Assembly: GCA_965248925.1 (NCBI GenBank) | Contig: CBDFLE010000006.1 | Coordinates: 3,616,001 to 3,680,000 of the forward strand | Direction: 5' to 3' | Source of the DNA: Candidatus Multivoradales bacterium | GTDB taxonomy: Bacteria > Acidobacteriota > Thermoanaerobaculia > Multivoradales > J023 | Length of the DNA stretch: 64,000 nt | Shown: positions 1,120 to 20,930 of the stretch, one piece after another | Layout: every line of letters starts with the position of its first letter | Position numbering within the stretch: position 1 is the first letter of the stretch | Notes under the pieces: generated by a model | The model's input: the letters and a program-made list of their open reading frames with translations, nothing else | Databases searched by the model: none | What the model was told of the DNA's origin: nothing | Made by a program: the position numbers and the translations under genes

Positions 1120-1456
1120 GCGCTTATTGGTCTTTTGCGAGTTGCGCGAGCAGTGCCCGCCGAATGACCTCGGGATTGGATGTGCGGCTATCGAATGCAC
1201 GCCGCGATTTTGACCATTGATATATGTAGACAATATCAGAATATCGAAAACAAGGAGTTCCCTCGCGTGCAATCTCTGTCATTCAGTGGATCGAGGGGAA
1301 ACGGTTCATTTCCAGCCTGCCAAAATGAACCGTTTGGTCTCTAACATCTTTTCCCATAGCTTGTTTGACGAAACAAAGTCGAGCGGGAACCTGGTGGGCC
1401 TAGGGCCAGTCCAAGCAAGAGAACGAATCTAGAATCTTCCAGAAAGTGAGGTAGCC

Positions 1457-1891: not shown

Positions 1892-1905
1892 AGGAGTCCA
1901 AGACT

Positions 1906-4900
1906 ATGCAACAGAAAATTCTCATCGCCTCACTTCTCTACGTTGCCCTCGCCGGGCCGACCGCCGCGCAACAGCCCCAGAGCCACCAGCGGGGCGTCAC
2001 CGCCGACACCGCCTTCCAAGTCGGCGCCATCGATTCGATCAACCTCTTCTCGGGGAATCTGTCGCTCCGCCTGCCCCTCGGCCAGAGCTACCCGGTGGGT
2101 CCCACTCTGAGCTACGGCTTCACCCTGACCTACAACTCCAGCGGCTGGGACTTTGACGACCAACAGAGCTGCACCGAGGGCACGCCGCCCAACCAGATGC
2201 TGGTTTCCTACAACTTGCCGATTCAAGATCTCGATGCGAATTCTGGCTGGGGGTGGCGGGTCAATCTTGGCCAGTTGGTGCGCTCCGAAGGCGGCAATCC
2301 CGCGCCACCCTTCAGCGGGTTTTCCTATTTGAGCCCTGACGGCGGGCAACACGCCTTCCACGATTTCCTCCACCCGGCCCAGAGCGGCACCTACCCGCCC
2401 GCCGGCACCCAGCCCAACACCTGGTTCACCCGCGACAGTACCTACCTGAGAATGCGCTACTACCCATTCGCCTCGAGCCCCTGCGAGACGCCGTCGAATC
2501 TGCTCGACCAGGATTGCCGGACGGTGGAATTCCCAAGTGGTGAGATGCATGAATTCCATAACATCAGCCACACCAGCTTCGATTGGCGGGTGACCAAGAT
2601 GCTCGACCGCTTCGGCCATTGGGTCAAGATAGCCTACGCCTCGGGCGGCGATTGGAGCGTCACCGATTCCGCCAACAGGAGTCATTCCCTCGATTTCACC
2701 GCCGGCCGACTGGAGAAGGTCACCCTCGCCGCTTTCAACAACCAAAGCGCCGTCTACGATCTAGTCTACTCCGGCCCGGTCGACCTGGAGCGCCAAGGCG
2801 CGCAGCCTTCGTGTGTGCCCGAAGGGGACACCCTTTCCGGCGTCCGCCTGCTCGAACGCCTGGTCTTGCCCGACGACTCGTTCTACCAAATGGACTACTA
2901 CCGCACCGACAATCCGGGAGAGAAGCTCTCGGGCGGCATCAAGTTCCTCCGTCTTCCCACGGATGGCGCCTTCGGCTGGCGGTACCAACAGATCGATTTT
3001 CATGCCCAAAGCCCAGATGTGCCCGAGGGCCGGGAGTGGGCCAACATCGGCACCGGCGTGGCCACCAAGTCGACGTTCTTGAAAGACAGCGACTATCCAA
3101 ACTCGCCCCACGGCACCTGGATCTATGACTACGATCCCCAAGGAGTGCTCGGTCCCGGCCAGATCTCCTGCTACCACACGCTCACCTTGACCGACCCGCT
3201 AGGCAACGACACGAAGCACTGGTTTAACTCCGCGGGCGCTAATCGCCAAGGCTTTGGCCTGCCCTTCACCCGCTGCACACCGGGCACCAACGACTACTAC
3301 AACAACAGCCCGCCCTACTTGTCGCAAGAGATCTATCAGGGCTCGGTGGCCAGCGGCACCAAACGCCGCTCGATCTTCCTGGAGTACGAGAACGACGGCC
3401 CGTCCGGCTTCTACGCCGACCGCAACCACCGGATGAAGTACCGCAAAGTCATCTACCACGACGACGGTGACAAGTTCCGCGAGGTCACCCACTCGGACTT
3501 CGATGGCCTGGGGCATTTTCGCACCACCACCACCGGCGGCAACTTCGCCAGTGGCAACGTGCGCGCGAGCGAGACCTTCTACAACCAGAATCGCGGCTCC
3601 TACTTGATCGCCAACAGCGATACCGGCGCCATCGACCCGGCCACCGATTTCGCCATGTTCGGCCAGACCCAGCCCTGGGTGCTAGAGACCTTCAACTCGC
3701 AATCGGTGACCGAGAACGGCGTCACCGAGACCACCGAGTATGACTTTGCGCTGCTGAACGGCTTCCTGCGCAAACGTCGGGTGCTGGCTGGCAGCTCGCG
3801 GCAGTCGAACGACTTACTAAGCATCTTCGTGCAAGCCGGCACTACCGGCTTCGTCGCCGCTGAGTTGCAGTACGGCGGCGACAGCCAGGCGATCAGCACC
3901 GCAAGCCTGGGCAACATCAACCCGGCCCACTCCGGCGCCCTTTACCGCACCAACCACAGCTACCAGTACGGCGTGCTGAGAAACTCCACGGTGGTCAACC
4001 CCTGCGCCACCAGCGAGGTGCTGCTCAAGCTGGCCGACTACGATCTCGACAAAAACACCGGCCTGGTCAAGCGCAGCCGAGACAGCGCCGGGATCAAGAT
4101 CGACTTCCTCTATGACCGGCAGGGCCGCTTGACCCATGAGTTTCCCGAGAGCGAAGCGGTGCGCCGCTACACCTACCGTTTGGCCACCCAGAGCAACTTC
4201 AACCTGATGCCGCTGCTGACCGAAGAGCAGTGCGTCACCACCGCCGCCTGCTCGGGCTCCGGCCTGCTGGCCTACCGCCAGCACACTTTCGACGGCCTCG
4301 GCCGTAGGGTCAAAGAGCAGGTGCAGTTGCCCGGCGGAGTGCGCTGGTACCGCCACATGAGCTTCAACCCACGGGCCTGGAAGACCGCGGAATCGGTGTG
4401 GACCCTCAACGCCACTTCCGACAGCCGCGTCACCAAGTACGAGCAGTACGACAACTTCGGCCGCCCCGGCAGGATCACCCCACCAAGCCAGCCGGCCACA
4501 TTCCTCAGCTACGAGGGCGAACGCACCAAGACGCGGCGGTTCAAAGTGATGCTCGCCTCCGGAGTGCAAGAAGACACCTACAACACCGAGATCTCCGATG
4601 GCCAGGGCCGATTGTTCGAGGTTTGTGAAGGCAGATCGGCGGCCTGGAATGGCAGCTGCAACGCGGGCGGCTTGCTGACTCGCTACGCCTACGACGCCGG
4701 CTCGCGGCTCACCCACGTTTGCCAGAATCGGACTGGATCGACCTGTGGCCAGCAACGCTTCTTCAACTATGACGGTCGCAGCTTCCTGACCTCCGAGACC
4801 CATCCCGAAGTCGGCCCAGTGGGCAACGGCGCCACGACCTATTCCTATGATGCTCGTGGCAGCGTTTTGAGCAAACGCATCGGTGGCTCCACCGAATTCG

Positions 4901-7026
4901 ACCTCGACTACTTCTACGATCCAGCCGGACGCCTGATCCGAGTTGACGAGAGCAACGGTGGCTCGCCGCGCAAGCTCAAGGAGTTCCGCTACGGCCGCAA
5001 GAACGTCGGTGCCGACAAGCGGGCCGGCAAGCTGGTGCAGACCACCCGCCACAATTGGGTGGATCTGGTGAATCCGCTGAACGCCAATCCTGGCTTCCTC
5101 GATGTCCGAATCTCCGAGAGCTTCGTCTACGCGGGTCGTGGCGGCCGGATGTCCGAGCGCCAGACCCGCTATCAGCTCGGCGTCGGTCACTACGCCTTCC
5201 AGAGTGGGTTCTCCTATGACCTGCAAGGCAACCTCGCGACCCTCGACTATCCCGACTGTCTGCACACCAACGACAGCTGCGACCAGGTCAGCCCACCGCG
5301 GCAGGTGAGCTTCGCTTACGACAAAGGCTTCCTCACCGCGGTGCCCGGCTTCGCCTCCAGCCTCAGCTACCAGAGCGGCGGCATGCTGACCCAGATCAGC
5401 CACCAGAGCGGCATCACCGAAACTCGCCAGGTCGATCCCTCCGGCCTCGCCCGGCCCGAGCGCATCTCCACCAACGCCGGCTGGGACACTGGCACCTTCG
5501 ACTACGACGGATCGGGCAACATCCACCGCATCGGCTCGCTGACCTACCGCTATGATCGTTTGCAGCGGCTGGTCAGCGGCGAGGCCAAGGTGGGAAGTAG
5601 CGACCGCCTGCAAACCGCGTCATATGACAACTTCGGCAATCTCACCCAGATGATCACCAACGGCGCCAGCCAGAGCATGAGCCCGAGCAGCAGCACCAAT
5701 CGCCTCGGCTTGAGCGGCACGGTGTACGATGCTGGGGGCAACCTGACCCGCGTGCGTTACAGTAGCTCGGAGATCTACCAGTACACCTACGACGCCGCCA
5801 ACATGATGAAACACCTGCAAAGCAACACAGATCAGGCGAGCGTGTACATCTACAACGCTGATGACGAGCGCATCGTCACCTTCAGCTGCTTCAGCGCCGC
5901 CGGCAGCAGCTGCGTCAGCAGCCCCGCCAGCGAGACCTGGACCTTGCGCGGGCTCGGCAACGAGGTGCTGCGGGTCTTCACCCATCCGCGGGGCGAAAGC
6001 TTCGAGTGGGAGCGGGACTACGTCTACCGGGGTGGACAGCTCCTAGCCTCGATAGACCCGGACTCCAGTGGTGTCGAGGAGACCTTCAGTTTCCATCTTG
6101 ATCATCTCGGCACGCCGCGGCAGGTAACGAAGAGTGGTAGCCAGGTGGCGCTGCACAGCTACTATCCGTTTGGGCAGGAGGCGACCAGCGCTAGCTCAGA
6201 CGAGTTTCAGCTGAAGTTTACCGGGCATGAGCGGGATCAGAACGGGGTGGGGGCGAAGAGCGAGCTGGACTACATGCATGCCAGGCATTGCAGTCCGGTG
6301 GTGGGGAGGTTCTTGGCAGTTGATCCTGTCCGGGGAAAACAGGCGTTGCCTCAGAGCTGGAACCGATTCTCCTATGTCCTGAATAATCCCCTTGCCTATA
6401 CCGATCCAGAAGGAGAGCGGACGGCGGCGCAGCTAGGACAGGCCGGGCAGGACTTGCTCTTCGATCTGACTGAGGAGGCGACGGCCCGCACGGGAGTGGG
6501 TCCGCTTAGTGTTGCTGTCGACACAGCCCTCGGAATGGGTCGAGATCTTGCGAGTGGTGTTCTCGACATCATGAAGGCTGGTGACGGGATTGGCACCGTT
6601 CTTGGGGGCGGAGCGACCGGCGGGGCAGCAGTGCTCGAGATCGGCAAGGATGTTCTCAGAGTCTCTGCGTTGGCTGGGGGCGGAGCGGTTGTTGTTCGCT
6701 CAGCAGCAAAGAAAAGCCTTGTTTCAGGGGGAGAAGCGGCTCTGTCTAAAGCGGCGGGGGCAGCTGACCGCAATGGGCTAACAAAGGCAGGACGGTCTCT
6801 TCAAAAGCATTCGTCCAGACCGGGTAGCGCATTCAATACATCGGCCACACGGGCTAAGGATCTGAACGCTGCGGGCCAGTCCGTTGTCGATGACATTCTT
6901 ACGGCACCTGGGTCGATCCAGAGAACAAACCGCCTCGGGGGTGTCGATGTCGGCCTACCAAACGGCCGAGGTATTCGCTACAACGCGGACGGGTCGTTCC
7001 GGAATTTCTTGGAGCCGAACGGATAG
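1906..7026 (+). CDS. Full-length Rhs/YD-repeat polymorphic toxin RhsA (Sec signal peptide; toxin tip CT1 'GRSLQKH...FLEP')
   Basis: 1706 aa with signal peptide MQQKILIASLLYVALAGPTAA, YD repeats, Rhs core (HLDHLGTPR, KFTGHERD, SWNRFSYVLNNPLAYTDPEG) and a variable C-terminus. Confidence 0.95.
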   Translation: MQQKILIASLLYVALAGPTAAQQPQSHQRGVTADTAFQVGAIDSINLFSGNLSLRLPLGQSYPVGPTLSYGFTLTYNSSGWDFDDQQSCTEGTPPNQMLVSYNLPIQDLDANSGWGWRVNLGQLVRSEGGNPAPPFSGFSYLSPDGGQHAFHDFLHPAQSGTYPPAGTQPNTWFTRDSTYLRMRYYPFASSPCETPSNLLDQDCRTVEFPSGEMHEFHNISHTSFDWRVTKMLDRFGHWVKIAYASGGDWSVTDSANRSHSLDFTAGRLEKVTLAAFNNQSAVYDLVYSGPVDLERQGAQPSCVPEGDTLSGVRLLERLVLPDDSFYQMDYYRTDNPGEKLSGGIKFLRLPTDGAFGWRYQQIDFHAQSPDVPEGREWANIGTGVATKSTFLKDSDYPNSPHGTWIYDYDPQGVLGPGQISCYHTLTLTDPLGNDTKHWFNSAGANRQGFGLPFTRCTPGTNDYYNNSPPYLSQEIYQGSVASGTKRRSIFLEYENDGPSGFYADRNHRMKYRKVIYHDDGDKFREVTHSDFDGLGHFRTTTTGGNFASGNVRASETFYNQNRGSYLIANSDTGAIDPATDFAMFGQTQPWVLETFNSQSVTENGVTETTEYDFALLNGFLRKRRVLAGSSRQSNDLLSIFVQAGTTGFVAAELQYGGDSQAISTASLGNINPAHSGALYRTNHSYQYGVLRNSTVVNPCATSEVLLKLADYDLDKNTGLVKRSRDSAGIKIDFLYDRQGRLTHEFPESEAVRRYTYRLATQSNFNLMPLLTEEQCVTTAACSGSGLLAYRQHTFDGLGRRVKEQVQLPGGVRWYRHMSFNPRAWKTAESVWTLNATSDSRVTKYEQYDNFGRPGRITPPSQPATFLSYEGERTKTRRFKVMLASGVQEDTYNTEISDGQGRLFEVCEGRSAAWNGSCNAGGLLTRYAYDAGSRLTHVCQNRTGSTCGQQRFFNYDGRSFLTSETHPEVGPVGNGATTYSYDARGSVLSKRIGGSTEFDLDYFYDPAGRLIRVDESNGGSPRKLKEFRYGRKNVGADKRAGKLVQTTRHNWVDLVNPLNANPGFLDVRISESFVYAGRGGRMSERQTRYQLGVGHYAFQSGFSYDLQGNLATLDYPDCLHTNDSCDQVSPPRQVSFAYDKGFLTAVPGFASSLSYQSGGMLTQISHQSGITETRQVDPSGLARPERISTNAGWDTGTFDYDGSGNIHRIGSLTYRYDRLQRLVSGEAKVGSSDRLQTASYDNFGNLTQMITNGASQSMSPSSSTNRLGLSGTVYDAGGNLTRVRYSSSEIYQYTYDAANMMKHLQSNTDQASVYIYNADDERIVTFSCFSAAGSSCVSSPASETWTLRGLGNEVLRVFTHPRGESFEWERDYVYRGGQLLASIDPDSSGVEETFSFHLDHLGTPRQVTKSGSQVALHSYYPFGQEATSASSDEFQLKFTGHERDQNGVGAKSELDYMHARHCSPVVGRFLAVDPVRGKQALPQSWNRFSYVLNNPLAYTDPEGERTAAQLGQAGQDLLFDLTEEATARTGVGPLSVAVDTALGMGRDLASGVLDIMKAGDGIGTVLGGGATGGAAVLEIGKDVLRVSALAGGGAVVVRSAAKKSLVSGGEAALSKAAGAADRNGLTKAGRSLQKHSSRPGSAFNTSATRAKDLNAAGQSVVDDILTAPGSIQRTNRLGGVDVGLPNGRGIRYNADGSFRNFLEPNG

Positions 7027-7032
7027 CTGGCC

Positions 7033-7275
7033 ATGGAAAGCGGTGATTTTGAAGTTCAGGTAATGGATGATCCAGACCACGAGGATCTCATTGCCGAGGT
7101 TCTCTACAAGGGGGAGTTTTGTTTCTTGATAAGCCAGGAGACAGGTTTTCGGAATCTGGAGATTCAGGTCCAGAGTCGGCAATCAGGCCAACCATGGCGG
7201 TTCAGTGTGGCTGAGATGGAGGACTCGATCAAACGAGCCAAGAAGCGCCTTTGGGAGCTGCAGCGTGTCGAGTGA
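7033..7275 (+). CDS. Putative immunity protein for CT1
   Basis: Small acidic 80-aa ORF 6 bp after the toxin stop; always travels with CT1 (repeated at 15764). Confidence 0.8.
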   Translation: MESGDFEVQVMDDPDHEDLIAEVLYKGEFCFLISQETGFRNLEIQVQSRQSGQPWRFSVAEMEDSIKRAKKRLWELQRVE

Positions 7276-7348
7276 TTGACACCGTCCTGGCCTAGTACAA
7301 GCCGCTTCGCATCAGCCCGGCTCCGGCCGGGCTTTCGTGCGTCTGGCT

Positions 7349-7711
7349 TCAGGTCGTGGCGTAGGACTGCCGGGTTCGCGCATCGCGGATGAGTCCGTCG
7401 ACCAAGTAGAGGATCCGGTCGCGATCTTCTCCAGAGATCTCTTCGAGGGCCTTCCAGCGGTCGAGCATCTCGCGGTCCTGGAGAGCGTGCGGCAAGGAGT
7501 TCTCGTTGACGAGGTAATCGACGGTGACCCCAAAGATGCTGGCCAGCTTGCGTGCAACCTCGACCGAAGGTGTCATGGCCCCTCGCTCGTAGCGCCCAAT
7601 GATGGTTCCCGAAGTACCGAGCTTCTCGCCAAGTACAGGTTGGGACCACCCCTTGCTCTTCCTCAGCTCGTGAATTCGGTGTCCGAGAGGGCTGTCGGAT
7701 CGCTTTGCCAT
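7349..7711 (-). CDS. Xre-family HTH repressor
   Basis: RIHELRKSKGWSQPVLGEKLGTSGTIIGRYERGAMTPSVEVARKLASIFGVTVDYL; transcribed divergently from the symE-primase operon. Confidence 0.92.
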   Translation of the reverse strand: MAKRSDSPLGHRIHELRKSKGWSQPVLGEKLGTSGTIIGRYERGAMTPSVEVARKLASIFGVTVDYLVNENSLPHALQDREMLDRWKALEEISGEDRDRILYLVDGLIRDARTRQSYATT

Positions 7712-7764
7712 GACCTAATCATCCTGAAATCAACGGTTTTGGCTCCTAACACATCACATTAGCG

Positions 7765-7841
7765 GACGTTTTCGTGCTGGTCAAGACGGCAGGGGCTTGA
7801 CAGTTAGTAGACGAATCGGTCATCATCGGGACGAAAAGGTT
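7765..7841 (+). promoter_or_regulatory. Divergent promoter with three candidate Xre operators
   Basis: TTGACA at 7797-7802 with CATCAT at 7821-7826. Imperfect palindromes GACG-N4-(C/G)GT at 7765-7776, 7810-7821 and 7830-7841. Confidence 0.5.
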
Positions 7842-7868
7842 CTGATGAAGAAAATCGAGGAGAGCAAA

Positions 7869-8081
7869 ATGATCGACCGCACCCTGACCATCTCCAGCCT
7901 CTACCCGTCCTCATCGGCTCCCTCGGGCTGGCGCTCGGTGCGCCAGGCTCGTCGGCAGCGGGCAGTGCCCTTTCTGCGGCTATCGGGCCGGTGGCTGGAA
8001 TCGGCGGGCTTCGAGATCGGCTCGAAGGTGCGGGTAGTGGTCGAGGCAGATCGCCTGGTGGTGGAGCCGGCGGATGTGTGA
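7869..8081 (+). CDS. symE: SymE-family (AbrB-fold) protein
   Basis: VPFLRLSGRWLESAGFEIGSKVRVVVEADRLVV is the SymE signature; GAGGAG RBS before ATG 7869. Confidence 0.85.
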   Translation: MIDRTLTISSLYPSSSAPSGWRSVRQARRQRAVPFLRLSGRWLESAGFEIGSKVRVVVEADRLVVEPADV

Positions 8082-8295
8082 GCAGAGGCTTCGGGTGTCG
8101 AGCTTCTACCGCCCCGGTTGGCCGGCGGCACCTGCTCTGGAGCGGCCGTCGCCGCTCCTGCTGCTGGTGGGCTCGTGGCTGGCTGAGGCGGGGTTTGCTC
8201 CTGGGGATGAGGTGCGGGTGTCGGGGGGGGATGGGCGGTTGCAGGTCGTTCGGCGGGAGCTGGGCGAGAATACGCCGGCTTGGGGAGGGCGGTAG
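8074..8295 (+). CDS. Second SymE-like protein
   Basis: PLLLLVGSWLAEAGFAPGDEVRVSGGDGRLQV is a SymE-like motif; overlaps the previous stop. Confidence 0.65.
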   Translation: MCEQRLRVSSFYRPGWPAAPALERPSPLLLLVGSWLAEAGFAPGDEVRVSGGDGRLQVVRRELGENTPAWGGR

Positions 8296-8297
8296 GG

Positions 8298-11200: not shown

Positions 11201-11318
11201 GGCCGGAAATCGTGGGGTTTCGTCGAAAAACGCACATAGGGGGGTGCAAGAAAACGGCTCGTCATATCGTAAATCAACACGTCGTACCCACGACTCAGAG
11301 ACGGCCGAGAGTGCGTGA
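8298..11318 (+). CDS. DNA primase/helicase-like protein: CHC2 zinc finger + Toprim + P-loop ATPase
   Basis: CPFHDDREPSL..WHCLGAC zinc finger; CESLIDALT and AYDRDDAG Toprim motifs; Walker A-like SSSAAGKS; likely GTG start at 8298. Confidence 0.9.
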   Translation: MSRIPEAEVERLKREVSVERLALARGVKLKRHGADLLGLCPFHDDREPSLVISPKKNLWHCLGACQAGGSVIDWVMRDRGVSFRHAVELLRSDLPAAVAAAPATAPALPSPVVAEAEDAELLGQVVGYYHEALKESPEALAYLESRGLKHPEMIEHFRLGFANRTLGYRLPPKQVKAGKEMRGRLQKLGVLRKSGHEHFNGSIVFPVFDSTGQVAEMYGRKITPNLRKGTPLHLYLPGLHRGIFNPEALVASTEIILCESLIDALTFWCAGYRNVTSAYGIQGFTDEMLVAFGGHGTRRVLIAYDRDDAGEKAAGKLAEQLMGAGIDCYRIHFPRGMDANEYALKVTPASKSLGVAIRRAQWLGKGKAPEVKLGFEPVEGEVAPPAEPTTSPHTAAEAVLVPPVPAEASPLPPPPPSDVPAEVREQEVVLSLGDRRYRIRGLPKNLAYDVLKVNVLASQGDSFHVDTFDLYSARPRSVFQRAAAAELGVEEQVVKKDLGKVLLKLEELQDEQIRSALEPQSVAIALSEEEKEAALELLRSPELLQRILEDFERCGVVGEEVNKLMGYLAATSRFLERPLAVVVQSSSAAGKSALMEAVLALMPGEEQVKYSAMTGQSLFYMGETNLQHKILAIVEEEGAERASYALKLLQSEGELTIASTGKDASTGKLVTHEYHVEGPVMIFLTTTAIDIDEELLNRCLVLSVDEAREQTRAIHRLQRERRTLEGLLSRTRRDGVTALHQNAQRLLRPLAVVNPFAPELTFLDTQIRTRRDHEKYLTLIDVIALLHQHQREVKRAVVDGREVEYVEVVATDIETANRLAHEVLGRSLDELPPQTRRLLGLIDAMVSEACEALAMDRPDYRFSRRAVREHTGWGNTQLKLHLRRLEELEYLLVHQGGRGQSFVYELVYVAGDESERPRLPGLIEVEALRYDGKKSGQAGEKSGPSRPQVGGVSGGGRGAVSPAESTASAGNRGVSSKNAHRGVQENGSSYRKSTRRTHDSETAESA
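11097..11169 (+). repeat. Helically phased AAGTCGG(G)-type repeats (iteron-like) in the 3' end of the primase gene
   Basis: TCGG cores at 11100, 11121, 11132, 11143, 11154 and 11165 (spacing 21, 11, 11, 11, 11). Confidence 0.7.
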
Positions 11319-12391
11319 TGGCGCGCCGTGGTCAGCGCAAGATCCGCCTCTTGCCGGGTGATCCTACTGATCCCAGAGGTTTCATGGTGATGGTTAGCAA
11401 GTACCTGGAGTGGATGGCGGTCAAGAGCTACTCACCGCACACCATCGAGGCCCGCCACCTCTACCTCAGCCACCTCATCATCTGGTGTGAGCAGCGCGGG
11501 GTAACGCGGCCGGCGGAGGTGACCAAGCCGATCCTGGAGCGCTACGCGCAGTGGCTCTACCACTACCGCAAGCCCGCGAACGGACGACCCTTGAGCTTTC
11601 GCACGCAGCTCACGCGGCTAGTGCCGGTGCGCGCCTTCTTCAAGTGGGCGGCACGGGCCAATTACTTGCTCTACAACCCGGCCTCGGAGCTAGAGCTGCC
11701 GAAGCCAGAGCAGCGGCTGCCGGCAGCGGTGCTCACTGCCGCAGAAGCCGACCAGGTGCTCAACCAGCCGGACACGATGGACCCGCTTGGCTTGCGGGAC
11801 AGAGCGATCCTCGAAGTCTTCTACTCGACCGGCATACGCCGGGCCGAGATGATCGGGCTGGGGCGCTACGATCTCGACGTCAACCGGGAAACGCTGATGG
11901 TGCGTCAGGGCAAGGGACGCAAGGACCGGATGATCCCCCTCGGCGAGCGGGCGCTGGCCTGGGTCGACCGCTACGTCACCGAGGTACGGCCCCATCTGGT
12001 GGTCGAGCCGGACGATGGAGCGCTCTTTCTCACCAACGATGGAATGTCCTTCACGACGTCATGGATGACCCCGCTGGTGCGCGGTTACGTGGTGGCCGCC
12101 GATATCGGCAAACCGGGCGCCTGCCACCTCTTTCGCCACACCATGGCGACGCTGATGCTCGAAGGTGGGGCGGATATCCGCTTTGTCCAGCAGATGCTCG
12201 GCCACGCCAGGCTAGAGACGACGCAGATCTACACTCAGGTCTCGATCCGCAAGCTGAGAGAGATTCACGCCACAACGCATCCGGGGGCGAAGCTGGGGAG
12301 CCGGGTGGTGCAGTCGGCGGAAGAAGACGGTAGCAATGAAGTGACCGCCGAGGACTTACTCGATGCGGTGGAGGAAGAAGCGGAGGACTGA
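11318..12391 (+). CDS. XerC/XerD-like tyrosine recombinase
   Basis: RDRAILEVFYSTGIRRAE, GKGRKDR, HLFRHTMAT and LGHARLETTQIY give the full R-K-H-R-H-Y catalytic set; TGATG coupling to the primase. Confidence 0.95.
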   Translation: MARRGQRKIRLLPGDPTDPRGFMVMVSKYLEWMAVKSYSPHTIEARHLYLSHLIIWCEQRGVTRPAEVTKPILERYAQWLYHYRKPANGRPLSFRTQLTRLVPVRAFFKWAARANYLLYNPASELELPKPEQRLPAAVLTAAEADQVLNQPDTMDPLGLRDRAILEVFYSTGIRRAEMIGLGRYDLDVNRETLMVRQGKGRKDRMIPLGERALAWVDRYVTEVRPHLVVEPDDGALFLTNDGMSFTTSWMTPLVRGYVVAADIGKPGACHLFRHTMATLMLEGGADIRFVQQMLGHARLETTQIYTQVSIRKLREIHATTHPGAKLGSRVVQSAEEDGSNEVTAEDLLDAVEEEAED

Positions 12392-12804
12392 CCCTGCCCC
12401 CCACCCGAAGCGGTCCGGGTCTCCGTGCTCGGGCTGCGGCCGGCCTGGCGGCCGTCCTCCGCTCCTGCGCGCGCAGCCCTCGGCTGTGTTTGTTTTCTCA
12501 CCCCTGCCCGCCCCGGTCCGAGCGTCCGTGATCCACCGCCCGTACCCTCCGGTCACCGGCCCAGAGCGGGGCTTCAAGTAGTCCAAGAAAAGAGTCTTCG
12601 AAAGCTCACCCCAAGCTCCGCCGAGGCGTGTGTCCCTCCGGTCGCTACGCTCCCTGCGGGCACGGGCCAGCCGCTGCGGCAAGCCGGGCGCCCGCCGGCC
12701 CCCACCCCTGGCCCTCCGTCGGTCACCCGGCTTGCAATCTCCGCTGTCCGATAGTGCGCCACTATCCGACCTGGCCCTCACAAGCCCCGGCTCCGGGCCT
12801 GCGG

Positions 12805-12834
12805 CCTTTCCATAACGCGTGCATTATGGAAACT
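12805..12834. other. dif/cer-like recombination site
   Basis: CCTTTCCATAA-CGCGTGCA-TTATGGAAACT: 9-bp perfect inverted arms, 8-bp spacer, and the CATAA/TTATG cores of Xer sites; about 415 bp downstream of the recombinase. Confidence 0.7.
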
Positions 12835-13596
12835 TGGGGTGAGCACGCTGGTGGCCTGCGGTGGTCAGCGGCTTCGGAACCACGCCCCGCTCTGGGCCTC
12901 CTTGCCGAGATCCACCAGCCAGCACTCAGGCGGCTCGGGCCGGACACCCGTCCGCCCCCTCAAGGGGGCTCCCCATCCTCCTCCCAAGACCCACCCGGCG
13001 CCAGGTCCTCCGTACCCTGCGCGCGGCGCCCTGCGGTCGCCGTGCTCAGCTCCGGCCCCACCGCCACCCACCCGAGAAGAAGACCCCCGCCCACCCCGTC
13101 CACCAGCTGCGCTCATGGCCGGCCGCCCCCACGCACCCAACGTGCAGCTTGGCTTGCCGGCTACGCCGCCGGCACCAAACTGCCGGGAAGACCCGCACTC
13201 GCTGCGACGATCAGCCCGACGAAAACGACCTAAGAAAACACCCACCGCCCGAAGAACACAGCCTAAGAAAACCGCATCCCGCCCCACCGCACCAACCACC
13301 CTCCCTCCTTTAGCCGCCGTCTTCGAGCACCAACAGCGGCGTAGAATGGCCCAGCATGAGGCAGGCAGCTAAAGGAAGAAGCATCTGGCGATCGCGCTCG
13401 GCTTGGTCGTCGTGCTTCTGGCCGTGACGATACCGGCGGCAGTGATCGCATCGGCGATGCACCGAGCTACGCCAAAACTCGCCTCTGGGTCTTCGAGAGC
13501 CAAGACCCCGCAGGCATCAGGTACGAGCGAGCTTAAGTGCAAACAGCTCTATGGGATACGTCGCGTCTTGCCCGAAACTTGCGTCGGGGTGTCCAC

Positions 13597-15757
13597 TTTG
13601 AGCAAACGCATCGGTGGCTCCACCGAATTCGACCTCGACTACTTCTACGATCCAGCCGGACGCCTGATCCGAGTTGACGAGAGCAACGGTGGCTCGCCGC
13701 GCAAGCTCAAGGAGTTCCGCTACGGCCGCAAGAACGTCGGTGCCGACAAGCGGGCCGGCAAGCTGGTGCAGACCACCCGCCACAATTGGGTGGATCTGGT
13801 GAATCCGCTGAACGCCAATCCTGGCTTCCTCGATGTCCGAATCTCCGAGAGCTTCGTCTACGCGGGTCGTGGCGGCCGGATGTCCGAGCGCCAGACCCGC
13901 TATCAGCTCGGCGTCGGTCACTACGCCTTCCAGAGTGGGTTCTCCTATGACCTGCAAGGCAACCTCGCGACCCTCGACTATCCCGACTGTCTGCACACCA
14001 ACGACAGCTGCGACCAGGTCAGCCCACCGCGGCAGGTGAGCTTCGCTTACGACAAAGGCTTCCTCACCGCGGTGCCCGGCTTCGCCTCCAGCCTCAGCTA
14101 CCAGAGCGGCGGCATGCTGACCCAGATCAGCCACCAGAGCGGCATCACCGAAACTCGCCAGGTCGATCCCTCCGGCCTCGCCCGGCCCGAGCGCATCTCC
14201 ACCAACGCCGGCTGGGACACTGGCACCTTCGACTACGATGGATCGGGCAACATCCACCGAATCGGCTCGCTGCAATACCGCTATGATCGTCTGCAGCGGC
14301 TGGTCAGCGGCGAAGCCAAGGTGGGCAGCAGCGACCGCCTACAAACCGCGTCGTATGACAACTTCGGCAACCTCACGCAGATGATCACCAACGGCGCAAG
14401 CCAGAGCATGAGCCCGAGCAGCGCCACCAACCGCCTCGGTCTCAGCGGCACCACCTATGACGCTGGCGGCAACCTGACCCGCGTGCGTTACAGTAGCTCG
14501 GAGATCTACGAGTACACGTACGACGCCGCCAACATGATGAAACACCTGCAATCCAACACCGACCAGGCGAGCGTGTACATCTACAACGCTGATGACGAGC
14601 GCATCGTCACCTTCAGCTGCTTCAGCGCCGCCGGCAGCAGCTGCGTCAGTAGCCCGGCCAGCGAGACCTGGACCCTGCGCGGGCTGGGCAACGAGGTGCT
14701 GCGGGTCTTTAGCCATCCACGTGGGGAGAGCTTCGAGTGGGAGCGCGACTACGTCTATCGGGGTGGACAGCTCCTAACCTCGGTAGACCCGGACGCCAGT
14801 GGTGTCGAGGAGACCTTCAGTTTCCATCTTGATCATCTCGGCACGCCGCGGCAGGTAACGAAGAGTGGTAGCCAGGTGGCGCTGCACAGCTACTATCCGT
14901 TTGGGCAGGAGGCGACCAGCGCTAGCTCAGACGAGTTTCAGCTGAAGTTTACCGGGCATGAGCGGGATCAGAACGGGGTGGGGGCGAAGAGCGAGCTGGA
15001 CTACATGCATGCCAGGCATTGCAGTCCGGTGGTGGGGAGGTTCTTGGCAGTTGATCCTGTCCGGGGAAAACAGGCGTTGCCTCAGAGCTGGAACCGATTC
15101 TCCTATGTCCTGAATAATCCCCTTGCCTATACCGATCCAGAAGGAGAGCGGACGGCGGCGCAGCTAGGACAGGCCGGGCAGGACTTGCTCTTCGATCTGA
15201 CTGAGGAGGCGACGGCCCGCACGGGAGTGGGTCCGCTTAGTGTTGCTGTCGACACAGCCCTCGGAATGGGTCGAGATCTTGCGAGTGGTGTTCTCGACAT
15301 CATGAAGGCTGGTGACGGGATTGGCACCGTTCTTGGGGGCGGAGCGACCGGCGGGGCAGCAGTGCTCGAGATCGGCAAGGATGTTCTCAGGGTCTCTGCG
15401 TTGGCTGGGGGCGGAGCGGTTGTTGTTCGCTCAGCAGCAAAGAAAAGCCTTGTTTCAGGGGGAGAAGCGGCTCTGTCTAAAGCGGCGGGGGCAGCTGACC
15501 GCAATGGGCTAACAAAGGCAGGACGGTCTCTTCAAAAGCATTCGTCCAGACCGGGTAGCGCATTCAATACATCGGCCACACGGGCTAAGGATCTGAACGC
15601 TGCGGGCCAGTCCGTTGTCGATGACATTCTTACGGCACCTGGGTCGATCCAGAGAACAAACCGCCTCGGGGGTGTCGATGTCGGCCTACCAAACGGCCGA
15701 GGTATTCGCTACAACGCGGACGGGTCGTTCCGGAATTTCTTGGAGCCGAACGGATAG
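13597..15757 (+). pseudogene. Orphan Rhs 3' cassette carrying toxin tip CT1
   Basis: Rhs homology starts abruptly at 13597 (LSKRIGGSTEF...). The frame is open upstream to 13373 through a non-Rhs leader. The CT is the same as in RhsA. Confidence 0.88.
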
Positions 15758-15763
15758 CTGGCC

Positions 15764-16006
15764 ATGGAAAGCGGTGATTTTGAAGTTCAGGTAATGGATG
15801 ATCCAGACCACGAGGATCTCATTGCCGAGGTTCTCTACAAGGGGGAGTTTTGTTTCTTGATAAGCCAGGAGACAGGTTTTCGGAATCTGGAGATTCAGGT
15901 CCAGAGTCGGCAATCAGGCCAACCATGGCGGTTCAGTGTGGCTGAGATGGAGGACTCGATCAAACGAGCCAAGAAGCGCCTTTGGGAGCTGCAGCGTGTC
16001 GAGTGA
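15764..16006 (+). CDS. CT1 immunity protein, copy 2
   Basis: Identical translation to 7033-7275. Confidence 0.8.
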   Translation: MESGDFEVQVMDDPDHEDLIAEVLYKGEFCFLISQETGFRNLEIQVQSRQSGQPWRFSVAEMEDSIKRAKKRLWELQRVE

Positions 16007-16079
16007 TTGACACCGTCCTGGCCTAGTACAAGCCGCTTCGCATCAGCCCGGCTCCGGCCGGGCTTTCGTGCGTCTGGCT

Positions 16080-16442
16080 TCAGGTCGTGGCGTAGGACTG
16101 CCGGGTTCGCGCATCGCGGATGAGTCCGTCGACCAAGTAGAGGATCCGGTCGCGATCTTCTCCAGAGATCTCTTCGAGGGCCTTCCAGCGGTCGAGCATC
16201 TCGCGGTCCTGGAGAGCGTGCGGCAAGGAGTTCTCGTTGACGAGGTAATCGACGGTGACCCCAAAGATGCTGGCCAGCTTGCGTGCAACCTCGACCGAAG
16301 GTGTCATGGCCCCTCGCTCGTAGCGCCCAATGATGGTTCCCGAAGTACCGAGCTTCTCGCCAAGTACAGGTTGGGACCACCCCTTGCTCTTCCTCAGCTC
16401 GTGAATTCGGTGTCCGAGAGGGCTGTCGGATCGCTTTGCCAT
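16080..16442 (-). CDS. Xre-family repressor, copy 2
   Basis: Identical translation to 7349-7711. Confidence 0.92.
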   Translation of the reverse strand: MAKRSDSPLGHRIHELRKSKGWSQPVLGEKLGTSGTIIGRYERGAMTPSVEVARKLASIFGVTVDYLVNENSLPHALQDREMLDRWKALEEISGEDRDRILYLVDGLIRDARTRQSYATT

Positions 16443-16599
16443 GACCTAATCATCCTGAAATCAACGGTTTTGGCTCCTAACACATCACATTAGCGGACGT
16501 TTTCGTGCTGGTCAAGACGGCAGGGGCTTGACAGTTAGTAGACGAATCGGTCATCATCGGGACGAAAAGGTTCTGATGAAGAAAATCGAGGAGAGCAAA

Positions 16600-16687
16600 A
16601 TGATCGACCGCACCCTGACCATCTCCAGCCTCTACCCGTCCTCATCGGCTCCCTCGGGCTGGCGCTCGGTGCGCCAGGCTCGTCGGC
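16600..16687 (+). pseudogene. 5' fragment of symE, truncated at the RAYT flank
   Basis: Matches 7869-7956, then switches to CAGAGAAATAGGTGCC. Confidence 0.8.
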
Positions 16688-16712
16688 CAGAGAAATAGGT
16701 GCCAGGCACATT
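16686..16712. repeat. REP-like palindrome at the 3' end of the RAYT gene
   Basis: GTGCC-A-GGCAC (16699-16709); GCCAGAGAAATAGGTGCC recurs at 26919-26936. Confidence 0.55.
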
Positions 16713-17652
16713 ATGAAGAGTCAGAAGGGGTGTTGGTGTCAACGAATTTTGGTCTTGGCGGGAAGGAGTTTTCAGGAAATCCGCTAGGTGCTCCACGGCT
16801 TCGAAGTTTCTCCGCGGCCGTACGGTATGCAGTGAGGAATTCGCCCAAGGCCAAGCGCATCGCGTGCCGGACTTTCTTCCGATAGACGTGAAAGAAGGGG
16901 GGTGGGTTTGTCGGTTGCTGGCCGGGGCGTCGATGTGTCTGCTGCTGGCCGACGAGGAATGCGCCGAGGGGCTCGGTTCCTCGGTCTTGATGGAGTCTTG
17001 CAGTATCTCTCTCGATCTTCTCGATGAGTTCCAAGATGTGTTGCTGCCGAGCTTCTGGCGCAAGATGCTTCCAGCATGGCAGGGTGTCGAGCTTTAACTC
17101 GACGTCGGTTTCGAAGTCGGACTCCTCGGTGTCGGCCTCGCGCTGGCTCGCCGCCCATTGCCGAGTGCGGTCGATCCAGATTCCCCTCAGCGGATAGCCC
17201 GTCAGGAGCGCTCCTGCGCAGTGGGCTCCCGGCCACTCGAGGGGTGACATCACGAGACTTTTTTTGCACCCTTGAGAGAGGATGTATTCGAGGCGCTTGA
17301 TCTGAGCTTCCTCTTCGTCGCTGACCGGAATCATGGTGTAGCGCCGGTCGAACATCGAGCCGGGCCAGTCGTGGAGACGACCTATTTCTTTGGCTATGTT
17401 GGTCTTGAGGTGTCCCATAAATCGCGCAATCTGTTCGACGGTGGCCGGTGAAGCGAGTAGGTGGAAGTGATTTGAGAGGACGGCGATCGCCTGGACGGCG
17501 AGCTCGGTTTCTTGCTGGGCTTTGGCAAGAATTCCGATTAGAAGCTGATTGAGACGCCGGCTCGGTCGTAGGAGGTAGCGCCCTTGCAGAGTCCGCTGGG
17601 TGATCTCGACCAAGCAGCCGGGACGCGGCAAGTAGCGTGGTAAACGTGGCAT
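16711..17652 (-). CDS. RAYT-like HUH (Y1) transposase
   Basis: MPRLPRY..VEITQRT..AVLSNHFHLL (HUH)..FDRRY..LEYILSQ..PLEWPG; 313 aa from ATG 17652, which overlaps the comM stop (TGATG). Confidence 0.85.
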   Translation of the reverse strand: MPRLPRYLPRPGCLVEITQRTLQGRYLLRPSRRLNQLLIGILAKAQQETELAVQAIAVLSNHFHLLASPATVEQIARFMGHLKTNIAKEIGRLHDWPGSMFDRRYTMIPVSDEEEAQIKRLEYILSQGCKKSLVMSPLEWPGAHCAGALLTGYPLRGIWIDRTRQWAASQREADTEESDFETDVELKLDTLPCWKHLAPEARQQHILELIEKIERDTARLHQDRGTEPLGAFLVGQQQTHRRPGQQPTNPPPFFHVYRKKVRHAMRLALGEFLTAYRTAAEKLRSRGAPSGFPENSFPPRPKFVDTNTPSDSS

Positions 17653-20916: not shown

Positions 20917-20930
20917 AGGAGTCCAAGACT

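Follow-up and report, generated by a model that had tools for sequence, protein, structure and literature searches.

What has brought a set of replication and recombination genes into the space between two copies of the end of an Rhs toxin gene? The question is raised by a locus in the window, a stretch of 64,000 nucleotides from the genome of Candidatus Multivoradales bacterium (GCA_965248925.1, contig CBDFLE010000006.1). Tip exchange and the orphan arrays of Rhs and CdiA toxins have so far been explained by homologous recombination acting on DNA of unknown origin. A first, sequence-only reading of the window had proposed a replicon-like element that swaps Rhs toxin tips. The analysis described here leans towards a related answer, namely that a family of small, probably self-replicating integrative elements is specialised on polymorphic-toxin genes and that the unit is one of its copies. 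This widespread family is apparently undescribed, and its members probably spread and reshuffle toxin tips together with their antidotes.

The full-length gene Rhs1 has the organisation of Rhs/YD-repeat polymorphic toxins, with PF05593 repeats and a TIGR03696 core ahead of a variable tip. The tips of Rhs1 and of its paralogue Rhs2 diverge from about position 6066 onward, and the Rhs1 tip, CT1, has no family match. The 80-aa open reading frame (ORF) behind it has no match in Pfam, NCBIfam or PHROG. An ORF with 36% identity follows CT1-like tips at two other loci; by its position and this co-occurrence, the 80-aa ORF is a candidate immunity gene. Flank Y, on the right of the locus, also follows three other Rhs1-family genes on contig C5 (97.6-98.2% identity over 760-979 bp), and shorter or more diverged pieces of it lie near further Rhs1-family genes. 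The region is generally repeat-rich, containing the Rhs1/Rhs2 tandem paralogues, an IS and REP-like sequences.

Self-BLAST and gene scans bore out the earlier description of an 8,731-bp unit bounded by a 3.09-kb direct repeat. The two repeat copies, each of 3,091 bp, are 98.4% identical at a spacing of 8,731 bp. Of their 49 mismatches, 48 fall within 5508-6064, where the left copy carries the Rhs2 sequence, and the remaining one lies at 6660. Between the copies is a 5,640-bp module comprising two SymE-like genes, a gene for a primase fused to a P-loop NTPase, an Xer-like recombinase gene and a leader of 1.2 kb (Table 1). The gene content given by the sequence-only reading was confirmed, but its layout needed correction: the Xre gene and the start of the first symE gene (53 codons) lie inside the repeat and are hence both duplicated, the second symE copy (16528-16687) being cut at the repeat end. 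In four runs of a single sample, short-read contigs span the repeat end and continue into the module (6286-8085) as well as the right flank (15017-16720), so the arrangement is not an assembly artefact. In short-read assemblies of the same sample, unitigs break at 4866/4895. Both repeat copies in the window carry the same tip CT1, and no tip swap is visible at this unit; what is seen is hence a duplication of the unit, Campbell-type or tandem, within a locus where this cassette was already present. No transfer genes were seen in this unit or in those annotated relatives that were inspected.

Table 1. Positions of the Rhs genes, the repeat-bounded unit and its components in the window
Feature	Position	Strand	Remarks
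Rhs1, full-length, 1,706 aa	1906..7026	+	RHS_repeat (PF05593); TIGR03696 core at aa 1419-1503
Tip CT1 of Rhs1	~6416 to 7023	+	After core end near aa 1503
Repeat R, left copy	4866..7956	+	Last 1,450 bp of rhs core, CT1, 80-aa ORF, Xre, symE codons 1-53
80-aa ORF, candidate immunity gene	7033..7275	+	By position only; directly after Rhs1; copy 15764-16006
Xre/RstR-like HTH repressor	7349..7711	-	NF041951 77.8 bits (cut-off 80); PHROG transcription regulators; copy 16080-16442
SymE-like gene 1	7797..8081	+	PF08845, 51.5 bits, 1.1e-13; spans repeat boundary 7956/7957
SymE-like gene 2	8074..8295	+	87%-identical paralogue L001:7960-8181 matches PF08845 (34.4 bits, 2.3e-8)
Primase fused to P-loop NTPase and C-terminal region, 1,012 aa	8280..11318	+	CHC2 Zn ribbon, DNAG_N, Toprim, then Walker-A
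Xer-like tyrosine recombinase, 358 aa	11315..12391	+	PF00589 2.8e-36; NF002331 'XerC' 432.3 bits (cut-off 371)
Leader	12392..13596	+	84-88% identical to leaders of other modules
Terminator-like hairpin in leader	12471-12489
Palindrome P1, conserved, GTCCGATAGTG-cgc-CACTATCCGAC	12746..12770	.	Similar palindromes after int in L038, L058, L085
Dif-like palindrome P2, 24 nt, TTCCATAA-CGCGTGCA-TTATGGAA	12808..12831	+	Candidate recombinase site
Leader ORF remnant	13356..13596	+	ATG at 13356; two frameshifts relative to 12 sister units
Open frame from leader into Rhs 3' half	13403-15757	+	ORF reading
Leader terminus motif TGCGTCGGGGTGTCCAC	13580..13596	+	Ends exactly at start of rhs homology
Repeat R, right copy	13597..16687	+	Orphan Rhs 3' half, CT1, 80-aa ORF, Xre, truncated symE
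Right flank Y	16688..17668	.	Usual downstream flank of Rhs1-family loci
RAYT-type Y1 transposase	16711-17850	-	PF01797; in flank Y
Rhs2, tandem paralogue with different tip	20931..25967	+	100% identical to Rhs1 over 4866-6065; 99.2% over 1400-6316
Orphan 2	about 27014-28408		Downstream of Rhs2

The Xre gene is divergent from the module genes and varies between units (34-54% amino acid identity). SymE-like gene 1 encodes a SymE/AbrB-fold protein (PF08845), the product of gene 2 itself has no match in NCBIfam or PHROGs, and an Rfam scan of 6900-17800 returned nothing relevant. Because SymE is missing from many distant modules, it is not a core part of the module. The large protein contains a DnaG-type primase (PF01807, PF08275 and PF13155; PDB 2au3 at 1e-33). 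With a score of 156 against the dnaG equivalog cut-off of 284, it is therefore not the housekeeping enzyme. The G-K-S of its Walker A motif is invariant in 35 primase-NTPase sequences. The family signals in the NTPase half are weak: 11 of the 35 sequences match AAA_29, and 9 match DUF5906, the latter with a best E-value of 9e-4. Neither a similarity to solved helicases nor a PDB match was found for this half. The NTPase half of this CHC2/Toprim/ATPase protein could thus be assigned to no helicase family, and calling the protein a 'replicase' depends on its primase half and the genetic context. The recombinase exceeds the cut-off of NF002331 in addition to matching PF00589, while the XerC and XerD equivalog models remain below theirs. 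The residues R..HxxR..H..Y, which we take to be the tyrosine recombinase catalytic motif, were read by eye in its sequence. It is of the simple Xer type and not an arm-binding phage integrase. The 1,012-aa and 358-aa frames are intact in most module copies.

Palindrome P2 occurs exactly 12 times in the 7.98-Mb genome, always in a module leader and always identical at 24 of 24 positions, while the leader around it diverges by 12-16%. It is most likely the 'dif-like site' of the sequence-only reading, whose pairing of such a site with an Xer-like recombinase finds support in this perfect conservation. An assignment of P2 as the chromosomal dif is ruled out by the presence of 12 sites, only inside elements, as opposed to a single terminus dif. 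Analogous palindromes of the form CATAA-N7/8-TTATG lie 50-370 nt after int in other phyla; at one Polyangiaceae locus, the arms of the P2-like palindrome are GTGCGCATAA. One array unit is chimeric, with the switch located between 88 nt before and 31 nt after the P2 start.

The genome contains 14 modules at six loci, including tandem arrays of seven and three. All 14 are co-oriented, each following immediately on either a full-length rhs gene or a preceding unit. Every single-unit locus shows the same order, consisting of the main rhs gene with the repeat DR and tip A, the module, the leader, and a second DR with tip B immediately at the leader end. DR is a core fragment of 202, 1,450 or 2,432 bp which matches the locus's own rhs family. 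In line with the proposal, units carry a piece of toxin core that matches the resident rhs gene. This cassette-module-cassette topology is repeated in the C5 array (4,516 bp at 100%) and in E. coli. The leader ORF continues in frame into the core fragment in 12 of the 14 units and is broken in the window copy. Integration at tRNA genes had been named beforehand as speaking against the proposal; ARAGORN found no tRNA gene near any of the six loci (window 1-32000 and nine loci covering the other five sites). A pair of otherwise identical occupied and empty loci was looked for and not found.

More than 558 relatives of the core Xre-primase-recombinase module are present among genome contigs, of which 80, with MAG labels of many phyla, were kept for analysis. 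Rhs core-end matches lie on the same strand on either side of the module in 14 of the 20 modules whose flanks were long enough, 13 of the 80 loci contain at least two modules in tandem, and the core-tip motif was found 46 times on the module strand versus once on the opposite strand. Eight cassette ORFs were scanned from six loci without an Rhs-model match near the examined module, and toxin domains (TNT, EndoU, NucA/B and CdiA_C) were detected in four. In E. coli, 56 of 5,426 complete genomes contain the module, at 201 places with a median of four per genome; the two places inspected both belong to vgrG-rhs loci. In an Enterobacter plasmid, cdiB-cdiA-cdiI is followed by tandem modules and these in turn by cdiA-CT orphans. 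The sequence-only reading had mentioned similar neighbourhoods near rhs and cdiA, and the genome survey confirmed them in 14 of 14 copies in this genome, in MAGs, at E. coli rhs and at Enterobacter cdiA. Two records were deposited as complete circular plasmids, from Lonsdalea (11,289 bp, two units) and from Shigella (8,758 bp, one unit), and among 46 short loci three are contigs of unit length with end overlaps of 122-141 nt, although such small plasmid records and self-closing contigs can also come from collapsed tandem repeats.

In the element reading that we favour, a unit extends from the rhs core fragment through tip, immunity gene, Xre, two SymE genes, primase/NTPase and recombinase to the leader. 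Integrase, replicase and repressor form the standard kit of integrative replicating elements. In a first step, the unit would be released as a circle, which could come about by homologous recombination between neighbouring units or the repeats on either side, or through the unit's own recombinase at P2. The circle would then be replicated by the primase-NTPase under control of the Xre-type repressor, and the recombinase may resolve multimers and shift units between circles and arrays at P2. Finally, the circle would enter a resident toxin gene via the core fragment it carries, the crossover depending on RecA-type homology or on the recombinase acting at the leader/core joint. Entry would place the new tip in frame on the full-length gene and leave the old tip behind the leader as an orphan; repeated entry would build tandem arrays.

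A tentative extension regards each tip cassette as its own replicon, in an integron-like system with autonomous cassettes that would serve Rhs, CdiA and actinobacterial toxins in many phyla and in E. coli as well. In this view, small circles integrated as a hetero-multimer would make up the array that follows a toxin gene, with arrays and circles interconverted by the Xer-like recombinase at the invariant dif-like site. A second precise joint at the leader end would fuse the adjoining toxin core in frame to the leader ORF with its signal-peptide-like start, and this fusion would keep displaced tips and their immunity genes expressed.

Entry purely by rhs-core homology, as originally proposed, fails to explain one feature of the joint: whichever of the three junction types is considered, the leader stops at one and the same nucleotide (within 2), beside three different and unrelated rhs positions. 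The joint between leader and rhs may have been made by the element's own recombinase. This precision also supports the possible, if doubtful, explanation that the units are site-specific toxin-gene islands. The recombinase would then integrate the circle at a core site located exactly at the leader/rhs joint, and homology to the right of the joint would only rebuild an in-frame toxin gene; tRNA-targeting islands likewise carry the 3' end of their target gene. Consistent with a core site, the first 10 nt past the joint are identical in all 12 main-type units while the rest of the core fragment differs by 9-19%, and the joint of the third rhs family matches the main-type site at 12 of 16 positions, though not at a homologous protein position. 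In MAGs with labels of several taxa, the motif CGCGTCRGGTC precedes the joint by 11-13 nt and sits in different reading frames, and inverted arms GCTGTCCCCT / AGGGGGTCAGC around a 7-nt spacer were read at the joint by eye, without statistics. Furthermore, the duplicated first unit of the C5 array starts exactly at the joint, without a chimeric core fragment. However, the window's own joint has no inverted symmetry, the spacing between motif and joint is about 90-120 nt in E. coli and Lonsdalea, and the invariant P2 is the better-looking recombinase site. Nor is the leader/core joint the place where identity between arrays stops, the block shared by two of them ending about 500 bp to its left, and the main rhs at C6:1342651, which adjoins a unit, lacks element-type sequence at the joint. 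To judge from these last two observations, ordinary homologous recombination clearly reshapes the arrays; together with the differing motif spacing, they also count against the element reading.

If such exchange were the only process, the modules would be fixed, domesticated machinery in arrays that change solely by unequal crossing-over, and the recombinase and primase would serve the host (for example in copy-number control or orphan immunity expression) or be decaying relics. We regard this as unlikely. The arrays are indeed mosaic, with long blocks of near identity such as unequal exchange and gene conversion typically produce, all 201 places in E. coli are chromosomal, and some modules are damaged by IS elements, internal stops or deletions. 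In addition, the leader ORF provides orphan tips with a start codon in the 12 units in which it is open, which resembles a host-level expression device. Against this stand the 50-64% identity between primases of MAGs that bear labels of distant phyla, which argues for horizontal movement as a unit, and the unrelated nature of the carriers, which comprise three rhs families, cdiA and actinobacterial TNT and EndoU tips. The small circular plasmid records and the mostly intact large frames also do not fit immobile relics.

Less probable still is a helper-dependent satellite of the P4 or PICI type, or a mobilisable island, that would be induced by a helper phage or plasmid and carry tips as cargo. 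The combination of integrase, primase-NTPase and Xre/RstR-like repressor in 5.6 kb does resemble the replication/lysogeny core of small satellites, and some relatives contain DinJ/RelE or DUF4258 addiction modules. However, no entry of the phage collection matched over at least 80% of the primase, the matches listed covering only the DnaG-like N-terminal third. A comparison of the C-terminal NTPase profile with P4 alpha gave an hhalign probability of 0.1, so that a P4-like alpha primase-helicase was rejected on both counts. The simple Xer type of the recombinase likewise disagrees with a satellite, and the annotation of the relatives inspected shows no capsid, packaging or excisionase genes. 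A chance neighbour of rhs combined with plain segmental duplication or mis-assembly, which the repeats of the region might suggest, is contradicted by the association of all 14 copies, its recurrence across phylum labels and in E. coli, and the independent short-read contigs that bridge both kinds of repeat end, and has next to no probability.

If the element reading is true, the missing vector for toxin-tip exchange would be a dedicated vehicle: a module of 5-8 kb that encodes a primase and a recombinase and transports a tip together with the antidote to it and part of the target gene. Since 56 complete E. coli genomes contain the module, which lies at vgrG-rhs in both loci inspected, the question can be addressed by ordinary genetics in a model organism. 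Further leads are a large primase-NTPase family without an assigned helicase fold, an Xer-type enzyme with a private candidate site, and 'orphan' tips that are possibly translated from a leader with an export-like signal. When genomes are annotated, genes called 'XerC' or 'DNA primase' beside rhs/cdi loci ought to be interpreted as components of this element.

Orphan rhs-CT and cdiA-CT arrays and the displacement of C-termini were reportedly described by Jackson (2009), Poole (2011), Koskiniemi (2014) and Kirchberger (2017). The loci discussed here share with them a full-length toxin gene followed by co-oriented tip/immunity cassettes that keep a short core piece, in which recombination can change the expressed tip. 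To our knowledge, the arrays as described involve no dedicated machinery, whereas most cassettes here bring along a primase-NTPase, recombinase, repressor and leader of their own.

The sites used by Xer-type enzymes are about 28-30 bp long and have centres of 6-8 bp; such enzymes are exploited in cer/psi plasmid resolution and by CTX-type IMEX. P2 appears similar to such sites in its short inverted arms, which end in CATAA/TTATG around an asymmetric 8-nt centre, and the module repressor resembles the CTX RstR family, albeit with an NF041951 score just below the cut-off. Unlike these exploiters, the units encode their own recombinase, and P2 occurs only inside elements. P4-type satellites are comparable in small size, integrase, large primase-NTPase, repressor and non-coding repeated sites next to int. 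They differ in the C-terminal half of the primase protein, in an arm-type rather than Xer-type integrase and in their target, which is a toxin gene for the units; helper-exploiting genes (sid, psu, delta, epsilon) and cos are not annotated in the relatives inspected.

Integrons and the rAID arrays of Bacteroidales have one recombinase at the array head and passive cassettes (PMC12247911), and XerC/D genes have been noted beside polyimmunity loci by Zhang et al. 2012 (PMC3482391). As far as the available portions of these sources describe them, integrons and rAID arrays resemble the present loci in associating an Xer-like recombinase with co-oriented toxin-defence cassette arrays and conserved intergenic motifs, but here each cassette has its own recombinase and primase. 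An integron was rejected, as a recombinase is found in every cassette and the integrase models score below their cut-offs (TIGR02249 105 vs 265; NF011946 78 vs 435). GMT (Gamma-Mobile-Trio) islands are a recently defined class whose cargo includes antibacterial toxins (bioRxiv 10.1101/2023.03.28.534373); by the accessible part of their description, they are unlike the units in having a different protein trio, no primase and no link to toxin-core fragments.

Tycheposons of Prochlorococcus are integrative elements with a tyrosine recombinase, primase/helicase and cargo that target seven tRNA/tmRNA genes (bioRxiv 10.1101/2020.12.28.424599). Going by the part of that report available, rhs units share with them the tyrosine recombinase, genes for autonomous replication, cargo and tandem accretion at the target; tycheposons have no conjugation genes, and none were seen in the units inspected. 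On the same partial account, rhs units differ in lying away from tRNA genes, with toxin-core fragments as the partial target copies, in a recombinase of the Xer type that exceeds the NF002331 cut-off, and in a cargo that replaces the working end of the target protein.

Self-comparison of the window revealed a direct repeat of 3,091 bp with 98.4% identity between its copies, bounding the 8,731-bp unit that the sequence-only reading had described. The copies differ at 49 positions, 48 of which lie within a patch of 557 bp (5508-6064); outside this patch they are identical save for position 6660. In the patch, the left copy carries the sequence of Rhs2, which is 100% identical to Rhs1 over 4866-6065. 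The 5,640 bp between the copies constitute the module. Its gene content agrees with the earlier list, except that the Xre gene and the first 53 symE codons are part of the repeat and that the second symE copy is cut, ending at 16687. From 16688 onwards follows the usual downstream flank of Rhs1-family loci in this genome, with a RAYT gene and REP-like sequence (flank Y).

Features of the window around Rhs1, the module and Rhs2
Feature	Position	Description
Rhs1 and Rhs2	145-6316 and 17669-25342	matching blocks of two tandem paralogues, upstream sequence included
Upstream block	145-1403	99.9% identical between the Rhs1 and Rhs2 copies
HTH protein	559-1119 (copy 18083-18643)	two HTH regions; upstream of full-length rhs
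Small Big_9/cadherin-like protein	1457-1891 (copy 20482-20916)	upstream of full-length rhs
Direct repeat	4866-7956 and 13597-16687
80-aa ORF		after Rhs1; no family match
Xre/RstR-like regulator		divergent from the module genes
Module	7957-13596
Two SymE-like genes		between Xre-like gene and primase gene
Primase, 1,012 aa		CHC2 zinc ribbon, DnaG core and Toprim, then Walker-A region
Tyrosine recombinase, 358 aa		NCBI 'XerC' subfamily model, 432 bits (cut-off 371)
Terminator-like hairpin		leader, 3' of recombinase gene; conserved
Palindrome P1	12746-12770	leader
Palindrome P2	12808-12831	8-nt arms ending CATAA/TTATG, asymmetric 8-nt centre
Open frame	13403 onward	into orphan Rhs half
REP-like motif	16688-16720 and ~26925-26945	CAGAGAAATAGGTGCC, hairpin-forming; right end of cassette, adjoining RAYT gene
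IS5-like insertion	18928-20424	transposase 19010-20401; splits second copy; flanking matches overlap by 4 nt

Four of six sequencing runs (three studies), all from one sample, contain 54-60% of the module's sampled words; none of the runs listed as containing it was of RNA. Short-read contigs of these four runs bridge the end of the repeat both into the module and into the right flank, and thus the repeat-module-repeat arrangement is not an assembly error. The runs were used as contigs, whose depth cannot give copy number: k-mer depth of the repeat's cassette part against module-specific contigs was 46.4 to ~20.7 and 25.6 to 12.9 in two runs, and 50.7 to 21.7 and 9.6 to 2.9-5 in the other two. 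A roughly twofold cassette depth is expected from the chromosomal repeat-module-repeat layout alone. The main joint analysis of the read contigs over 3500-18500 gave no joints; in contigs of all four runs, 16718 is joined to 4004 with the letters CG between.

Over 1400-6316, Rhs1 and Rhs2 are 99.2% identical. No vgrG or PAAR gene was identified among the scanned ORFs, and no leader remnant lies upstream of the second orphan tip cassette. The REP-like motif also occurs as short tandem copies at other places on contigs C5 and C6 of the genome and was dropped as an att candidate, being genome-wide not specific to rhs loci. An Rfam scan of 6900-17800 gave one sub-threshold miRNA match and nothing more.

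BLAST and tblastn searches located 14 modules at six loci in the 7.98-Mb, six-contig genome, namely seven in tandem on C5, three on C6 and four singles. All 14 are co-oriented and stand directly behind a full-length rhs gene or another unit; their primases are 79-92% and their recombinases 77-81% identical to those of the window. At a single-unit locus, the main rhs gene ends in a core fragment and is followed by tip A, a small ORF, an Xre gene on the opposite strand, two SymE genes, primase, recombinase and leader, to which a second core fragment with tip B is joined. The commonest rhs family repeats a 202-bp fragment at such loci, the window's family one of 1,450 bp and the third family one of 2,432 bp. 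The window's repeat exceeds its core fragment only because the same tip cassette flanks the module on both sides. The same cassette duplication is found in units 1 and 2 of the C5 array, with 4,516 bp at 100% identity. Array backbones are 94-100% identical, and the variable part consists of tip, small ORF and Xre. None of the six loci has a tRNA gene nearby, so that integration at tRNA genes, which would have spoken against the sequence-only reading, is not seen in this genome.

Several units carry additional changes. In the seven-module array (C5:919000-990500, loci L006-L009), a 2.9-kb insertion interrupts the primase of unit 1 and is found again in the unit 4 leader. A 1.64-kb insertion is present immediately beside P2 in units 4 and 5, and deletions in two other leaders likewise end beside P2. 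The third-family unit (L001) has a small addiction-type gene, DUF4258/BrnT-like, between recombinase gene and leader (L001:12337-12633), a place taken by DinJ-RelE/ParE genes in units of Lonsdalea (L113) and Enterobacter (L116).

Among 40 relatives, full-length primase homologues occur in five genomes (E = 0 or far below 1e-100). In one of these, four modules recur every ~7 kb behind an rhs gene. A further 22 matches, at 1e-21 to 1e-28, extend over the DnaG-like N-terminus only and resemble housekeeping primases. A wider search of genome contigs, with one genome per species, returned more than 558 relatives, of which 80 were kept (35-73% identical). These are from MAGs whose labels include Acidobacteriota, Myxococcota, Gamma- and Alphaproteobacteria, Actinomycetota and Dormibacterota. 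The order Xre (opposite strand)-primase-recombinase is conserved across the 80 loci, SymE is not, and 13 loci contain at least two tandem modules. In four loci with primases 35-40% identical (L076, L078, L080 and L084), two recombinase ORFs follow the primase in tandem and may represent an XerC/XerD-like pair; here the toxin fragment follows within ~40-90 nt, without a long leader.

The toxin association extends across these loci, so that modules without toxin fragments are not the usual case, as the sequence-only reading had anticipated. Of 41 modules, 17 have an Rhs-model match on the module strand no more than 4.5 kb upstream; of 35, 17 have one no more than 3 kb downstream; and 14 of the 20 modules with both flanks long enough have one on either side; for other phyla these counts are lower bounds, as the HMM was built from the 17 full-length Rhs proteins of this genome only. 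Six modules with both flanks available had no Rhs-model match on either side. Eight cassette ORFs, from four Rhs-negative loci plus L093 and L023, were scanned for toxin domains. Four matched, specifically CdiA_C (L042), EndoU (L061), TNT (L099) and NucA/B (L093); the remaining four gave a sub-threshold Peptidase_M76 match only (L061) or no match (L054, L085, L099). Furthermore, a peptide pattern typical of the toxin-core end has 46 occurrences on the module strand against a single one on the opposite strand.

Plasmid records match at 1e-60 or better in 34 cases, many of them Ralstonia/Caballeronia megaplasmids or Leptospira plasmids. On a plasmid of Enterobacter sp. JBIWA003 (L116), cdiB-cdiA-cdiI is followed by two tandem modules with cdiA-CT-like orphans after each. 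The module is present in 56 of 5,426 complete E. coli genomes; its 201 places in them are all chromosomal, and the median genome has four. In two strains that were looked at in detail, HD12481 and SCU-113 (L117 and L119), modules lie behind vgrG-rhs, near ydcC, pptA and narZ, and an 84-87-nt 'partial RHS core' follows each recombinase gene after ~950 nt. RefSeq names the module genes of both strains 'DNA primase' and 'XerC', and ISEc1 (H-repeat) copies lie within their units. At these loci, a HYD1 ADP-ribosyltransferase tip cassette flanks a module on both sides; of the 45 genomes that match it, 44 have a place covering most of the cassette, and the median number of places per genome is two. 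No tip swap is seen in SCU-113, because the HYD1 tip is again an orphan there. Among the matches listed, no E. coli genome has the same main rhs without a module, and all 42 tip-bearing genomes are module-bearing.

Some records of relatives are circular. The 11,289-bp record NZ_CP072857.1 of Lonsdalea populi, deposited as a complete circular plasmid, comprises two units. Both include a nuclease tip, an immunity gene and a short end of toxin core. The primase is truncated in one of them, whereas the other contains Xre, SymE, primase, XerC, a DinJ/RelE pair and a ~900-nt leader. A single unit with an IS makes up an 8,758-bp record from Shigella flexneri. Three of the 46 loci of at most 13 kb are unit-length contigs (7,865, 7,638 and 7,569 bp) with terminal overlaps of 127, 122 and 141 nt. 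These records are consistent with free circles, but the collapse of identical tandem units could produce them as well.

The 1.2-kb leader of the window is 84-88% conserved in its paralogues. A promoter and terminator scan remained at chance level, except for the conserved terminator-like hairpin after the recombinase gene. Exactly 12 copies of P2 are present in the genome, all of them in leaders and identical over 24 nt, and a looser pattern yielded no further match genome-wide. Comparable palindromes stand 50-370 nt after the recombinase gene in distant loci; the arms are GTGCGCATAA in a Polyangiaceae locus, and Acidobacteriaceae loci have a different palindrome, CTTTAGCTGT-N7-ACAGCTAAAG. P2 is the obvious candidate for the site at which the recombinase acts, and is probably what had earlier been called a dif-like site. 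Unit 2 of the C6 array is a chimera: over 1,605 nt it is identical to C5 unit 3, up to a point 31 nt beyond the start of P2, and from 88 nt ahead of that start it is almost identical to C6 unit 1. This single case comes from a comparison of 8 of the 14 units; C5 units 4 and 5 were excluded for their insertions, C6 unit 3 and C6one for their deletions, and the window unit and C4b for being too divergent.

All 14 units share one leader end point (to within 2 nt), which follows GCGTCGGG(G/C)T(G/A)TCC. Homology to the rhs gene of the respective locus starts directly thereafter, at three unrelated positions in the three rhs families. The first 10 nt past this joint are invariant in the 12 common-type units, although the remainder of the fragment varies by 9-19% from unit to unit. 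By eye, inverted arms of 10-11 nt can be seen at the joint, separated by a 7-nt spacer. Across the window, the leader-terminus pattern shows no enrichment, with 15 matches against 13.3 expected. In MAGs carrying several other labels, a related motif, CGCGTCRGGTC, precedes the joint by 11-13 nt and falls in different reading frames; it is therefore a DNA or RNA signal and not a protein signal; in E. coli and Lonsdalea, the motif is ~90-120 nt from the fragment.

A leader ORF begins with an ATG 244 nt before the joint in 12 of the 14 units and continues in frame into core fragment and tip. It is broken in the other two, by two frameshifts in the window's copy and by a stop in the third-family copy. 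Its start, with basic residues, ~20 hydrophobic residues and Ala-x-Ala, appears signal-peptide-like. The cdiA-CT-like orphans of L116 (16895-18930 and 25289 onward), which follow each module and are annotated 'adhesin', also start with Met, basic residues and a hydrophobic stretch, as the Rhs-linked leader ORFs do; the rhs orphans of E. coli lack such a start. Orphan tips may be independently translated and exported.

Where a recombinase, a large primase-NTPase and a variable repressor travel as a set across phyla, the standard reading is an integrative element capable of autonomous replication. On balance, we favour the view that the unit is an integrative element, probably self-replicating, that is specialised on polymorphic-toxin genes. 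It carries a toxin tip, the presumed antidote and a piece of the target gene. A circle of the form [fragment-tip-..-leader] would enter the 3' core of a toxin gene repeatedly. With each entry, the full-length gene would receive the incoming tip and the previous tip would be placed behind the leader, and repeated entries would give arrays of the form main gene-[tip..module-leader/fragment]n-tip. Excision, replication, resolution at P2 and entry are steps that we infer. Anatomy, toxin association, conserved sites and the circular records of relatives are directly shown and support the sequence-only interpretation in part; entry by homology alone does not explain the precise leader terminus.

Entry may proceed by homologous recombination in the core fragment, as that interpretation had it. 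The mosaic identity blocks and the duplicated cassettes in the window, C5 and E. coli argue for this route, and a replicated circle would recombine most easily with its own parent copy. Alternatively, the leader/core joint may be a place of site-specific recombination, as favoured by the precise leader terminus, the invariant first 10 nt and the joints at two unrelated rhs positions, which are alike in 12 of 16 nt; however, the identity switch between the C6 and C5 arrays lies ~500 bp from the joint and not at it. We consider this route less likely. Two histories fit the window. Either an 8,731-bp circle re-entered by homology a locus already ending in CT1 (the Rhs1 tip), ORF, Xre and symE', an old remnant abutting flank Y, or the unit was duplicated in tandem and the stretch from symE to Y was then deleted. 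The expressed tip would be unchanged under both.

Integrons and rAID arrays have an Xer-like enzyme and a cassette logic in common with the modules, but one recombinase per array instead of one per cassette (PMC12247911). That the cassettes are autonomous and form an integron-like system with a second in-frame fusion joint is a bolder and less likely reading. A P4-type satellite fails on the tested features, and the C-terminal half of the primase shows no similarity to P4 alpha by hhalign, nor a fold by PDB sequence search or Pfam (35 members).

To our knowledge, descriptions of orphan-tip arrays and C-terminal displacement cover the cassettes and not the machinery. No description of the module was found in full-text literature; subscription journals and supplements lay outside this search, and 'undescribed' is therefore provisional. 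With this proviso, what appears to be new is a probable integrative replicating element that targets a toxin gene and brings cargo to take the place of that gene's working end. The element is widespread, its presence in E. coli makes it experimentally approachable, and it is a concrete candidate vector for the old question of how toxin tips move. In Zhang et al. 2012, only XerC/D genes beside polyimmunity loci are mentioned (PMC3482391). Closest in kind are the tycheposons, which have a recombinase, replication genes and cargo and lie next to one another with partial target copies between them (bioRxiv 10.1101/2020.12.28.424599); tycheposons target tRNA genes, whereas the modules described here probably target toxin genes.
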